This document shows, piece after piece, positions 2,277-63,151 of a stretch of DNA of 64,000 nt; within the stretch, counting starts at the first letter, position 1, and every line of letters starts with the position of its first letter. Position numbers and translations under genes: made by a program. The notes under the pieces were generated by a model, which was given only the letters and a program-made list of their open reading frames with translations, was not told the origin of the DNA and searched no databases. The DNA comes from Eledone cirrhosa (taxonomy: Eukaryota), in NCBI GenBank assembly GCA_964016885.1, contig OZ024740.1, forward strand, positions 56,420,001 to 56,484,000, in the 5' to 3' direction.

Positions 2277-2444
2277 CTGGAATAAATGAATATATATTGA
2301 AATTAAACATTTCTAGTCCTGTAGAAGCCATTTGTATATTAAATTTTATGTTTACACTCTACGAATGTATTGAGTATCTTACTTGCTGTAGTTACCCCAT
2401 ATTGAACCCGGGACTCATATATATATATATACATTCATACATGC

Positions 2445-2951
2445 ATACATGATGGCTGAAAATTCTGTTAAGAGTATTGCAATCGTTTATCAGATTACAG
2501 AGTTTGGTACACTTTTAGGCTACGGCCAGCCACATGAACCTGTAACAGATCCTGAAAAAACAATGCCGGTGCTTTGATGGTTTTTTAAGTGGGCAAAGGC
2601 CTTGCACTGGACCAATTCCACTCTCTGAACATCGAAAACGCTACCCAAAAAGTAGAACAGGTCAACATCATCGGATGCTTCCGAAGCCGCAGGTTTTTTT
2701 TTTTTCAGAGTTTCCCTCTCATAGAAAGATATTGTGACAACAACTAAGGGCCTTTCACTCCCAGGTAGGGAAAAAAGTACTGTTTCGATGGCCGTTGACT
2801 CCTGCTGAGTTCCTCCACCCATCGGTTGTCTAAATGTCACCCTCCTCGACAAGCAAGCTTGGTGGGGTTGCCGGTTTAGTCGCCGACGACCCGATTATGA
2901 GACAGGTTGTACTGGGTTACATGTTATCAATATCACTTGAGAGCGACCTGA
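2445..2951 (-). mobile_element. Non-autonomous RTE-related short retroelement
   Basis: Shares its head with the copies at 2976, 24815, 34848 and 62088; ends in cagccatca(tgta)n like the RTE end at 58430. Confidence 0.65.
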
Positions 2952-2975
2952 CATAATATATACATACATACATAC

Positions 2976-3572
2976 ATGGTGGCTGCCAACTCGTTTTCGA
3001 GTACGGCCACTACCTTATATCCATGTAGGAGAACCCCTACCGATGCGCTGAACGAGTGTGACTTATTAGTCCAGCCAGCGACTTGAAAATTCTGGTACAA
3101 ACACTACACTTGTGAGAATTATTGACACATAGTGCTGGGCCCATGGTACCATGTGACGACAAGTGCAGAGAGATCTCCAGATATAAAGCAATGCCTGTGC
3201 CGTGAAGCTTTTATAGTGAGCAAAGGCACTGCACAAAGCCAGTCCCACTCTCTTAACCAAGATGATATTTACCAAAAAGAAGAACAAGTCAACATCATTG
3301 GATACCATCAGAGTTGCAGGTGTTATATCAGAGTTTTCCTTCTCCTAGAATTCTGCCTTGACAAAGGCTAAGGGGTCACCTCTCCCGGTGATTTTGGATG
3401 GCCATTGAATCTTACGACCTCCTTTGCACTTTGACAGGTTTTGTTTTTAGTCCTGCAGGATGTCCAAAGTCACCCTCCTCACCAAGAAACCTTGGTGGGG
3501 TTGCCAGTTTAGTCGCCAACGACCCGACCATGAGACAGGTTGTACTGGGATACATGTTACCAGTAGCACCAA
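2976..3572 (-). mobile_element. Non-autonomous RTE-related short retroelement (near-identical to 62088-62695)
   Basis: Direct sequence comparison; (TACA)n flanks. Confidence 0.75.
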
Positions 3573-4377
3573 CATACATACATACATACATACATACATA
3601 CATACATACATACATACATACATACATACATACATTCACACACATACATACATATATATACATATAAAACAACCGTCCGTTTATTGAACCAACCAACCGT
3701 AAATTTATAATACATTGAAGTGAAAGCCAACAGGTGCATCTGTTTTATTGACAGCATGACCCTTCTAATATAACAATATATATATACGCACGCACACACA
3801 CACAGATATATATATATATAGAGAGAGAGAGAAAGAGAGGGAGAGAGAGAGAGAGAGAGAGAGAGAGAGAGAGAGAGGGGGAGGGAGAGAGAGAGAGAGA
3901 GAGAGACAGACAGAGAGAGAACTAATTAGCACCATGAATAACAACATTTCCTCGCAGCCACGTCGTTTTGTATTGAAATCTACCGCACCTCGAGTAGTTG
4001 TAATTAGACCAATACTGTGTAAATAGAATCTGGTAATCGGGACTATGCTGAAGCCATATATATATAAATATAAATATAATTATATATATATATATATATA
4101 GATTAGAATGAAACGAAATTTAATTTCTCACTCTTAGTACGGCAGTTACTTAAATGCAAGTATGTAAGTATGTATACGTACATACATATATTTATACAGA
4201 CGTACAGTAGTATGTATATATATACATACATGCACACATATATCTATGCACGTATCGGTTTACCGAACATTTATTATAATGCTCGGTTTGTTTGTTTGTA
4301 AACAAAAAAACAACCCGAATTACGCCGTACAGTGTTTAGGCAACCACGTCAGCTTTTTATTCAACACTGACACAGGA

Positions 4378-4420
4378 ACGATATACTAGTTTCAAGCTTA
4401 TTAGCTATCGTCAGCATCGT
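4378..4420 (-). ncRNA. Minimal hammerhead ribozyme; inverted mate at 4800-4841 (+) has a CTGACGG core
   Basis: cgatg-CTGACGA-tagct aata agctt-GAAA-CTAG-TA-tatcg. Confidence 0.75.
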
Positions 4421-5065
4421 ATACCTGCCTGCCAGATGGTTGAACGTCTGAAAGTATATACTTTCCTTATGCATATTAACAGCTGAGCAGCCTAATTTGC
4501 ATATCGAGTGTGTTCAGTCGGCCGGGCACACCGAAAACGATAAATGGAATAGAATGAAACGAAATTTCATTTCTCACTCTTAGTACGGTACTTACTTAAA
4601 TGTAAGTATGTATGTATACGTATATACATATATGTATACAGACGTACAGTAGTATGTATATATATATACATACATGCACACATATATATATGCACGTATC
4701 GGTTTACTCACTCGATATGCAAATTAGGCTGCTCTGCCGTTAATATGCATAAGGAAAGTATATACTTTCAGACGTTCAACCATCTGTCAGGAAGGTATAC
4801 GATGCTGACGGTAGCTAATAAGCTTGAAACTAGTACATCGTTCCTGTGTCACTGTTGAACAAAAAGGTGACGTGGTTGCCTAAACACTGTACGGCGTAAT
4901 TCAGGCTGTTTGTTTGTTTACAAACGAACAAACCGAGTATTATAATAAATGTTCGGTAAACTGATACGTGCATATATATATGTGTGCCTGTATGTATATA
5001 TATATACATGCTACTGTACGTCTGTATACATATATGTATGTACGTATGCATACATGCATACTTAC

Positions 5066-60244: not shown

Positions 60245-60530
60245 ATCACATAAGAAACTCTCAGAATCAGTGGTGAGACGAATTACAATTTATTAGACAT
60301 ATTACAATCGTTTCTCTGGCGACCAGCTCGAGGCACGATCGAAGCAATGTCGAACCTGACTCTGAAATCGCAAGATCCTCAGATACGTCTCGATTCTTCG
60401 GAGCAGAGTTTTTAATTCATCGCACCACTGATTCTCCGTTTCTTATGTGATATTATACGCTGCTCTGAAAGAGCATCGAGTGCTCAAACGGCCTACCGCA
60501 TACGGACGCTTTAAGCACCCCACACCAATT
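60245..60530. mobile_element. PLE end with inverted arms (60245-60285 and 60414-60452), hammerhead and tail
   Basis: Inverted repeat seen directly, between (TA)n tracts. Confidence 0.75.
60296..60389 (-). ncRNA. Hammerhead with long stem II
   Basis: gacgtat-CTGAGGA-tct...aga-GAAA-CGATTG-TA-atatgtc. Confidence 0.7.
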
Positions 60531-61189
60531 ATATATATATATATATACATACTGTATATATATATATATATATATATATATATATATATATATATATATA
60601 TATATATATATATATATATATATATATATATATATAAAATTTCAGGTTATCAATAATGTAGTGATAATATAACGTTACTACTACACCAAATGACCAGCCC
60701 TGTCCACTGTCCAATTGGTCAAGTAGAGATTAAAATTGGCACTCCCAAAAATTCATATTTAGATAAAATGAACCATTTACTCATGGTATTCTCATTAGAA
60801 ACCCATTATATACTTGTTTAGCAGTAAATTGATTTACCATCTGTCATATACTATCCCCTATTTTTCTTCCTCTATTACTAATATAAATACTTCAATTTTT
60901 CTGATTTTATCCAATTTATCCAAAATCTCTGAAGAAGGGACAACTGATTATACATTTGCTATCGAATACTTGCTAACATTATATGATTACGCAAGCAGCG
61001 ATACATAGGTATTCCGTCTGTTACAGAAGCATATGTCAATACCTAATAAATTCCTTTTTAAAAAAAGCACTTTCATTTTATATTCATCCTTTCTATATAT
61101 ATATATATATATATATATATATATATATATATATATATATATATATATATATATATATATATATATATATATATATATATATATATAAT

Positions 61190-62060
61190 ATTAAGGATAC
61201 TACTTATAGTTATGTATATATTATACTATATACAACAATAAACAGGTAAGGTCAGTAATTTATTACTACCTTATTACCAGTAAAATAAATAGCTCAATGT
61301 AGGAACAACATTTGCTATACAGAGCAGTAATATAGAATACACAAGAATCAAAGCTATGTTAGAACATTCAATTGCTGACAATTGTTTCTTCCAAGCATAG
61401 GCTTGGTTTCTTCGGAGTATTATTAGCAATGTTTTTACATATACGTAGAAAATTCTAACAGCTCTACAAATGTAATATACGACACGGACTAAATAACACT
61501 ACGTTACTTTACAATACAAGCCATTACTATAACAAACACTCAATACAAATATATCGTGACAAATGTAATGGATGTGAAACCTGGAACTTTCTTATTCTGC
61601 ACACACGCATATTTGATCTACATAGAAGATATCTCTGCATTGAAACCACCATAATATAATAACAAACATGCTATAAGTGCTTGTATTTTATATGCCACAC
61701 CCAGCACTCATATATGCTTGATACTTTTGTTTGTTTAATTGCTTTATATGACTAACGCACGTACTGTCTCTTTAATTTTATTTATTTACTAGACGCTCTT
61801 GTATTCTCTGCCACATGTGCCCCAACAAAAGCTTTTAATTTTAATTTTGAATCTTATTGTACAATTTAGCATAATATATGTCGCATCCATCCCACACTGT
61901 TGTCCACAATATGTATCTGTATGATTCTTCAGCGGAATAGGAGGCTAATTATATGTATAAACATTGCTAATAATGGTCCGAAGACTACAAGCCTGGGCTT
62001 GGAAGAAACAATTGTCAGCAATTAAATGTTCTAACATAGCTTTGATTCTTGTGCATTCTA
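61190..62060 (-). mobile_element. PLE remnant with inverted pLTRs (61332-61436 and 61959-62060)
   Basis: Inverted repeat with CCGAAGA hammerhead variants; (TA)n flanks. Confidence 0.7.
61963..62022 (+). ncRNA. Variant hammerhead (CCGAAGA core); inverted mate at about 61371-61430 (-)
   Basis: attgct...CCGAAGA-caagcc/ggcttg-GAAA-CAATTG-TC-agcaat. Confidence 0.55.
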
Positions 62061-62087
62061 TATATATATATATATATATATATATAT

Positions 62088-62695
62088 GGTGGCTGCCAAC
62101 TCGTTTTCGAGTACGGCCACTACTTTATATTCATGTAGCAGAACCCCTACCGATGCGCTGAACGAGTGTGACTTTTTAGTCCAGCCAGCGACTTGAAAAC
62201 TCTGGTACAAACACTACACTTGTGACAATTATTGACACATAGTGCTGGGCCCATGGTACCATGTGACGACAAGTGTAGAGAGATCTCCAGATATAAAGCA
62301 ATGCCTGTGCCGTGAAGCTTTTATAGTGAGCAAAGACATTGCACAAAGCCAGTCCCACTCTCTTAACCAAGATGATATTTACCAAAAAGAAGAACAAGTC
62401 AACATCATTGGATACCATCAGGGTTGCAGGTGTTATATCAGAGTTTTCCTTCTCCTAGAATTCTGCCTTGACAAAGGCTAAGGGGTCATCTCTCCCGGTG
62501 AATTTGGATGGCCATTGACTCTTAAGAGCTCCTTTGCCCTTTGACAGGTTTTGTTTTTAGTCCTGCAAGATGTCCAAAGTCACCCTCCTCACCAAGAAAC
62601 CTTGGTGGGGTTGCCAGTTTAGTCGCCAACGACCCGACCATGGGACAGGTTGTACTGGAATACATGTTACCAGTAGCACCAACTGGTGACCTAAC
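62088..62695 (-). mobile_element. Non-autonomous RTE-related short retroelement
   Basis: Near-identical to 2976-3572. Confidence 0.75.
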
Positions 62696-63151
62696 ATATG
62701 TATATATATATACAGTATATATATATATATATACATACATACTGTATATATATATATATATATATATATATAAAATATATATACATACTGTATATATATA
62801 TATATATATATATATATATATATATATATATATATATATATATATATATATATATATATATATATATATATATATATATATATATATATATATATATATA
62901 TATATATATATATATATATATATATATATATATATATATGTATATATATATATATATATATATATATATACGGTTGATTATAGACTTGTTCTATGTGTGA
63001 CGGTATTTTAACGATAGTTATAGCTCTGATTTATCTGAATTATTGAGCCCTCTGCCGCTCATATCGAATTTTGTTTATCGTGAACTCGTGCGCCGATTTT
63101 TCGATACTCGATTATTCTACTATATATATATATATATATATATATATATAT

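Follow-up and report, generated by a model that had tools for sequence, protein, structure and literature searches.

Tandem hairpins just downstream of both 3′ ends of Hydra-clade Penelope-like elements: a candidate start signal for reverse transcription

Introduction

Penelope-like elements (PLEs) of the Hydra clade encode a protein with a C-terminal GIY-YIG endonuclease and the motifs RWK, DKT and CxCX5C, carry a hammerhead ribozyme in their pseudo-long terminal repeat (pLTR), insert at (TA)n and in general measure less than 3 kb; in Naiads the endonuclease is N-terminal, and canonical hammerheads are absent (accessible text of PMC8557442). It is already known from the same text that the tail is often present at one end of an insertion only. 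For Poseidon of Anolis carolinensis, two internal starts of the reverse transcriptase (RT) lie on either side of the tail, extension occurs on both strands and the reaction depends on RNA 3′ of the starts (accessible text of PMC11167929), and circular or tandem templates were proposed earlier for PLEs (PMC4209133, in the part accessible). Here we describe a hairpin of Hydra-clade PLEs, starting from a window, the whole stretch of 64,000 nt that was analyzed, in the 3.0-Gb genome of Eledone cirrhosa (GCA_964016885.1, contig OZ024740.1:56,420,001-56,484,000, forward strand), where an original prediction had placed it in the tails of many unrelated PLE families.

RT-docking RNA hairpins are known as a kind, among them the 3′ stem-loops of long and short interspersed elements, hepadnavirus epsilon and the template-boundary element of telomerase RNA, and twin priming by L1 yields head-to-head inversions using a random internal site. 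The Hydra hairpin resembles the docking hairpins as a small structured RNA that would position an RT, but differs in occurring as two tandem copies 3′ of two fixed internal starts, the second of which is never copied; no sequence or Rfam similarity to the known docking hairpins was found. In the open literature searched we found neither a hairpin pair marking both ends nor, in agreement with the original prediction, any conserved structure in the tail; subscription papers, such as Pyatkov 2004, Arkhipova 2006 and the Repbase reports, lay outside this search.

The insertions studied here share with those of PMC8557442 the extension at one end, partial tandems, inverted 5′-truncated copies and (TA)n targets. 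The accessible text of that paper gives the tail as 30–40 bp, ascribes it to resolution by the endonuclease and names no conserved structure in it, whereas here the tail measures ~65–170 nt (~40 to >130 nt from hairpin 1 onward) and has two conserved hairpins as its bounds. Poseidon, as presented in the accessible text of PMC11167929, likewise has two internal starts around its tail, extension of both strands and a need for RNA 3′ of the starts, and its protein is predicted to be dimeric; it differs in clade, in having a start in an AC-rich stem-loop within the open reading frame (ORF) and in a binding motif hypothesized to lie within 172 nt, and that text identifies no conserved or repeated element comparable to the Hydra hairpin pair.

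Results

In Hydra-clade elements the hairpin (full consensus RCUC-stem-loop-stem-UH-GAGY-RCU) occurs as a tandem pair, its upper stem covaries, both 3′ ends keep a fixed spacing to it, and head-to-head insertions join a short arm to a tailed one. The 5′ untranslated region (UTR) is laid out as hammerhead, ~45 nt, hairpin 1, ~40 nt, hairpin 2, ~20–45 nt and start codon. Each family has two 3′ ends, both at a TA ~3–7 nt upstream of a hairpin: hairpin 1 follows the short end and hairpin 2 the tailed end, and hairpin 2 is not present in the 3′ ends. For the short ends, 104 of 152 junctions had 3–7 nt between the TA and hairpin 1, and the modal offset fell in this range in 14 of 17 families. The prediction of hairpin 2 was drawn from the ORF-bearing family, in which it lies at L007:381-398, 4 nt past the tailed end; other families were then searched for it, any spacing being allowed and the GAG half not being required. 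The 5′ UTR was read for 10 families of this genome. The predicted hairpin was found 4–6 nt after the TA in the families of window sites 48237/50390, 63023, 14838, 49067 and 61292 and in that of L060, while hairpin 2 of the 43780 family is a near-fit with a basal mismatch. The placement of the hairpin in the optional 3′ tail was thus confirmed, but the tail holds one half of the signal, and a second copy outside it appears to set the tailed end. The downstream junction with a microsatellite, originally put at 40–100 nt, was measured at 39–91 nt, although the relevant distance is the 3–7 nt to the upstream end.

To extend this beyond the genome, an alignment of 37 relatives was used to retrieve 77 metagenome and 12 genome-bin loci, presumably host DNA. 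At 55 of these outside loci the sequence before the ORF was 130 nt or longer; two signature copies were present in 33 of them, one in 12 and none in 10, and the antisense strand of the same regions gave four matches. Fifteen of 19 true outside junctions ended −1 to 7 nt before a hairpin, compared with ~4.5 expected if every TA were equal; these 19 remained from 31 rows after removal of six of L167 (coordinate error), two L232 duplicates and four without a signature hairpin, the count given by the script itself being 17 of 22 against 4.88 expected. Two of the four misses actually lie 2–4 nt before a hairpin, and L185 is a true exception. The ends at these loci thus avoid many other TA steps of the UTR. 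Hydra-clade elements also occur in contigs filed as bacterial genome bins (L227-L238), which are probably animal host DNA.

Covariation was judged on sites located by the 3′ signature and the nearest CTC only, because the alignment behind our covariance model R2 had been chosen from pairing-based matches and is biased. One site was taken per 70%-identity protein cluster, giving 28 sites for hairpin 1 and 27 for hairpin 2 from 50 clusters, the rest of which lack the region or vary. Upper pair 1 of hairpin 1 was Watson-Crick in 27 of 28 (U-A 14, C-G 13) against a shuffled mean of 13.0, and pairs 2 and 3 in 22/28 and 17/28 against 8.9 and 7.9. Only a 2-nt bulge fits: if the bulge is set to 1 or 3 nt, pair 1 is matched in 0 and 5 of 28, respectively. 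Mapped onto the protein tree, one side of pair 1 shows 9 changes and the other 8, with 9 switches of pair type, so that the two sides change together, and the independent-pair test gave a median p of 0.03 for pair 2. Covariation of hairpin 2 above its first pair was weaker (15/27 and 16/27). The carrier proteins share ~30–45% identity and their flanks are unalignable; the CUC/GAG is invariant nonetheless, with upper pairs covarying. In the outside copies of hairpin 1 the basal pair was G-C and the bulge began with U in 28 of 28, and the trailing letters were NCU, mostly ACU. Since these letters are invariant and the upper pairs covary, the CUC, U, GAG and trailing CU look as if they were read as sequence, and the upper stem as structure. 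Selection on a paired structure, as originally proposed, is therefore supported by the upper stem across distant families, but the basal A-U/G-C swap that had been offered for it is weak evidence, the basal pair being G-C in all the outside hairpin-1 clusters; the A-U form common in this genome may reflect CpG decay with compensation.

The insertions themselves show how the two ends are combined. Among 53 head-to-head pairs of 11 families (random sample plus window), 51 joined a short to a tailed arm, two joined two tailed arms and none two short arms; with 83 tailed and 39 short unpaired arms, the departure from independence has a p of 1.5e-13. Loci chosen by their ORF gave short plus tailed in 10 of 10 pairs, and loci chosen by their tail, which cannot reveal short plus short, gave 18/19, 16/17, 7/7 and 10/10. 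At 10 of the 16 window sites an inverted partner ends 2–6 nt before the hairpin position, and 20463 has a further one at a distance of 3.7 kb. In the ORF family the short arm went beyond the tailed arm on the 5′ side in 8 of 10 pairs (in one by 11 nt only), and for the 14838 family 9 of 14 rows (two duplicates) have a tailed arm that stops within the tail, so that neither arm is a copy-back of the other; for the ORF family, the short arm as a copy-back of the tailed complementary DNA (cDNA) was rejected on the first of these grounds. Many copies extend 5′ of the hammerhead, and no pile-up of 5′ ends at its cut site was seen in five families. The inversion points of short head-to-head insertions are often at the palindromic hammerhead stem II (window 31336-31345, 34297-34305 and 49536-49644). 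The tails of most families often contain another hairpin, variable in sequence, in the stretch from hairpin 1 to the tailed end (for example, window 43835-43870).

By its sequence, the ORF-bearing element of the window is a Hydra-clade PLE. The full protein of its family (773 aa) has YRDD at 352, the linker at 631 and YVG at 665, which makes the endonuclease C-terminal, with RWK at 37, DKT at 121, the CxCX5C linker at 631-639 and the CxxC and CxH of the endonuclease within 729-759; RW[KR] was present in 104 and DK[TS] in 113 of 121 proteins. The element's single ORF with a C-terminal GIY-YIG is as expected for a Hydra PLE. A hammerhead in the pLTR and (TA)n insertion are present in this family, the core being degenerate in several others; its core at 43622-43654 also occurs in most full-length relatives, at odds with the lack of canonical hammerheads in Naiads. 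The assignment of the element to Naiad in the original prediction was ruled out by the C-terminal GIY-YIG, the canonical hammerhead and the Hydra motifs. The proposed cis-element is likely to be read by the element's own RT/GIY-YIG protein, as suggested, but not by a Naiad one. The tandem unit (3578 bp) exceeds the usual <3 kb of Hydra because of a long 3′ UTR with microsatellites. This young family has TA/TG microsatellites inside the 3′ UTR (window 43006-43260) and at least 97 near-identical copies in the genome. A Pfam search of the protein assigned no family, a search of viral contigs found no relatives, and the best matches of its AlphaFold model (predicted local distance difference test score 85.8) among solved structures were telomerase RTs.

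Eight of the 10 sequence groups of the window were tied to Hydra-type ORFs, the 60457 group weakly (1 of 24 loci), and the 63023 group lacks an ORF. The hairpin was absent from the tail and the 5′ region of two non-Hydra families of this genome, which we take to be Neptune-like and Nematis-like from their linker motifs. The many families of the original prediction are thus many, but all belong to one clade. Six 9-mers matched the accessible, partial supplement text of PMC8557442 seven times, four times in Hydra UTRs or tails, once in a Naiad file and twice in a Chlamys file; the latter three lie away from element ends, and line breaks in that text may hide matches. The young Neptune-like family (L299, L297) has a 784-aa frame, a long upstream coding region and no canonical hammerhead, and is without the motif. 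In the Nematis-like family (L301, L303; one pair in the window) the two ends are 60 nt apart and all 12 insertions joined short plus long; inspected by eye, both ends run into the same ATATCG and a different kind of hairpin, a possible clade-specific counterpart.

An ORF-less family of 609-bp tandem units retains both hairpins with a degenerate hammerhead core, has 509 pattern matches genome-wide, and includes an array of ~60 units on the same contig (81709489-81748443; L306, L307) and the window fragment 62972-63120. Every terminal end examined, including that of the array, stops before hairpin 2. Its behavior resembles that of a non-autonomous Penelope derivative and in this respect is like that of non-LTR retrozymes (accessible parts of PMC7229834 and 10.64898/2026.07.22.740005), for which those parts name the ribozyme as the only cis signal and describe a complete type I hammerhead per unit, in contrast to the degenerate core here.

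The described letters were present at all 16 coordinates originally listed in the window. The strict rule (RCTC, at least 3 upper pairs, a 1–2-nt pyrimidine bulge, GAGY, and a paired basal R-Y) gave 14 window sites, namely 12 of these 16 plus 17892 and 45790, and missed 49758 for its weak upper stem, 60457 for a basal mismatch that is confined to that copy (22 of 23 relatives have ACTC) and 43780 and 20463 for their TCTC. Shuffled 100 times with the microsatellites kept in place, the window gave 3.96 strict-rule sites on average and at most 11; 13 of the 14 observed sites had a microsatellite 25–110 nt downstream, compared with an average of 0.57 and never more than 3 in the shuffles. In a held-out sample of 119 evenly spaced 10-kb stretches of the same genome (1.19 Mb), (TA)4 followed 25–110 nt downstream of 78 of 141 RCTC/GAGY matches, which are family copies and not independent events, and of 15 of 133 YCTC/GAGR controls. 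Both comparisons bear out that the motif is commoner than chance. In 1.254 Mb there were 120 tailed candidates, about one per 10 kb, in 38 clusters, 12 of them with at least 3 members; chance likely explains part of the singletons. The 16 sites, originally called otherwise unalignable, form 10 sequence groups, of which six are alignable pairs. The position downstream of a hammerhead held in part: a canonical CTGANGA..GAAA core (≤260 nt) preceded six sites and a variant core four, but six had none. The covariance model R2, whose training set excluded this genome, ranked 11 of these sites within its top 16 window matches, missing 1-nt-bulge and long-loop forms, and a scan with Rfam 15 models gave no real match, only microsatellite-driven ones below the gathering score. 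The features are listed in Table 1. A hammerhead-bearing inverted repeat (window 44377-44750) ends in (CA)n and has an ambiguous ACTC..GAGC near its end.

Table 1. Hairpins, hammerheads and insertion arms in the window (positions are those of the window; +, plus strand; -, minus strand;., both arms)
Feature	Position	Strand	Remarks
Hairpin 1, relative of 34213	2356..2375	+	
Hairpin 1, relative of 31417	8283..8302	-	
Hairpin 1	14838..14883	-	inverted short arm ends 15022; family: canonical hairpin 2, Hydra ORF
Strict-rule match	17892-17946		looks like chance
Second head-to-head insertion, ORF family	20392..24082	.	tailed arm minus, short arm plus ending 24082
Hairpin 1, ORF family	20463..20503	-	
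Hammerhead of second ORF-family insertion (tailed arm)	20629-20661	-	
Hairpin 1, distant relative of 63023	24645..24669	+	
Minimal head-to-head insertion	31269..31478	.	short arm ends 31269; hammerhead core 31345-31366; tailed end near 31478
Hairpin 1, 1-nt bulge	31417..31436	+	family tied to Hydra ORF; hairpin 2 degenerate
Hairpin 1	34213..34231	-	hammerhead 34275-34297; inverted short arm ends 34367; family: Hydra ORF, hairpin-2 remnant only
Inverted short-ended arm of 43780 insertion	41154..41497	-	stops 4 nt before hairpin-1 position
5′-truncated Hydra-clade ORF (RT thumb, CxCX5C linker, C-terminal GIY-YIG)	41432..42736	+	homology to 773-aa protein from 41528
Hammerhead core, pLTR of copy bearing 43780 hairpin	43622..43654	+	
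Hairpin 1, young ORF-bearing Hydra family, basal U-C mismatch	43780..43820	+	tailed end near 43890; fold not favored without protein
Hairpin candidate beyond the original list	45790..45814	+	strict-rule match; tail and hammerhead core present
Hairpin 1	46450..46469	+	hammerhead 46344-46384; family: Hydra ORF, degenerate hairpin 2
Hairpin 1	48237..48260	-	inverted short arm ends 48362; family: canonical hairpin 2, Hydra ORF
Hairpin 1, long upper arm	49067..49139	-	inverted short arm ends 49354; family: canonical hairpin 2, Hydra ORF
Hairpin 1, relative of 46450	49758..49785	+	hammerhead 49644-49663; inverted short arm ends 49427
Hairpin 1, relative of 48237	50390..50413	-	inverted short arm ends 50540
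Hairpin 1, private basal mutation	60457..60481	+	inverted short arm ends 60243; ORF link weak (1/24 loci)
Hairpin 1	61292..61325	-	inverted short arm ends 62063; family: canonical hairpin 2, Hydra ORF
Hairpin 1 in fragment 62972-63120 of ORF-less 609-bp tandem unit	63023..63048	+	unit keeps both hairpins

Discussion

From the sequences we consider it probable that the hairpin pair of the Hydra clade docks the RT and that reverse transcription starts at a UA 3–7 nt upstream of each hairpin. The endonuclease would cut both strands of the (TA)n target, and each target 3′-OH would anneal to one UA, the active site of the docked RT reaching a UA a few bases upstream, where a cut (TA)n end can pair. 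One RT, likely half of a dimer, would start before hairpin 2 and copy the tail while the other would start before hairpin 1, so that both starts would be used in a single insertion, one per target strand. The two cDNAs would then be joined head to head, or one of them would continue and yield a direct copy. As hairpin 2 is absent from the 3′ ends and many copies reach past the hammerhead on its 5′ side, the template RNA would be tandem or circular. The tail would be the distance between the two docking sites, which would account for its long-puzzling presence on one side only.

Several observations weigh against this reading. The spacing from end to hairpin varies between families (3–7 nt), and hairpin 2 is degenerate in the 46450 and 31417 families and a mere remnant in the 2356/34213 family, with a sharp tailed end kept; for the 31417 family, a pattern search for hairpin 2 gave eight matches, all unrelated, and the degenerate form was seen in full-length copies. 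The first pair of hairpin 2 is invariant (C-G 25/27) and shows no covariation, and for pair 1 of hairpin 1 the independent-pair test had only 4 pairs (4/4, p 0.125). The basal helix is predicted to pair with a probability above 0.5 in no more than 8 of 16 window sites, in 42 of 52 outside hairpins 1 and in 28 of 48 outside hairpins 2, and with one of 0.03 in the young ORF copy at 43780. By eye, only three of six published Hydra consensus sequences in the accessible supplement show the hairpin clearly, one coral family and two sea-cucumber families, of which one carries it twice at the 5′ end, and the remaining three show degenerate forms at most. The Poseidon data come from another clade, and the short plus tailed rule holds in all 12 pairs of the Nematis-like family, which is without the motif. 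The rule is thus general and the signal clade-specific, and the rule supports two-site priming, not the Hydra hairpin in particular.

Much the same ends could arise from a signal in DNA, if, in cDNA or donor DNA, the endonuclease recognized either the hairpin or the near-palindromic AG-YR-CT, cut at the TA just upstream and so trimmed a longer intermediate. The GAGY-RCT is near-palindromic in nearly all outside copies, the Penelope endonuclease of D. virilis needed the tail to cut plasmid DNA (cited in the accessible text of PMC11167929), and the accessible text of PMC8557442 ascribes the tail to endonuclease resolution. We nevertheless regard a DNA signal as unlikely: hairpin 2 is absent from the 3′ ends, so that a longer cDNA would have to be primed at a more 3′ position and afterwards be joined to the target; the sense-strand bias and the covariation of the upper stem fit a single-stranded RNA, and internal RT starts were shown directly for Poseidon (accessible text of PMC11167929). 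A single complex spanning the whole two-hairpin region, with hairpin 1 essential and hairpin 2 auxiliary, would explain why the tailed end stays sharp in the 3 of 10 families with a degenerate or missing hairpin 2, and hairpin 1 does fold better than hairpin 2; such a ruler is hard to reconcile with tails that vary from ~40 to >130 nt after hairpin 1 and end 4–6 nt before an intact hairpin 2, and it seems to us somewhat less likely still.

The hairpins might also serve a role apart from the ends, in ribonucleoprotein assembly or translational self-repression, with the ends at adjacent AT-rich priming sites. Hairpin 2 does lie 19–44 nt upstream of the start codon, but the ends avoid other TA steps of the UTR and the ORF-less family retains both hairpins and ends before hairpin 2, which makes this improbable. 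Shared ancestry or chance without function, to which the restriction of all carriers to one clade might point, is very improbable given an invariant CUC/GAG and covarying upper pairs at ~30–45% protein identity amid unalignable flanks. Docking of the RT on both hairpins thus remains the reading that we prefer.

A wider form of RT docking on paired hairpins is plausible, but we put it at slightly below even: PLEs in general would use programmed twin priming, in which a dimeric RT-endonuclease on two hairpins of a single tandem or circular transcript primes from both cut target strands simultaneously. This by itself would produce the pLTR, the head-to-head copies and the tail on one side only; the Hydra hairpin would be a portable 25-nt start tag, and other clades would have a repeated signal of their own. 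In the Poseidon template RNA, as given in the accessible text of PMC11167929, a CUC/GAG-containing helix with a 3′ bulge can be seen by eye at ~+121 to +147, just 3′ of the +111-118 start, and may be due to chance.

The choice of start site, the one-sided tail and the head-to-head copies of PLEs are open questions in the accessible texts of PMC8557442 and PMC11167929. A conserved signal at a fixed distance from both ends, common to coral, sea cucumber and dozens of marine families, provides exact mutations to test and a marker for annotating truncated and non-autonomous copies. It also offers a way to study how the sister group of telomerase recognizes RNA and, if portable, the hairpin would be a minimal template signal for this class of enzyme.

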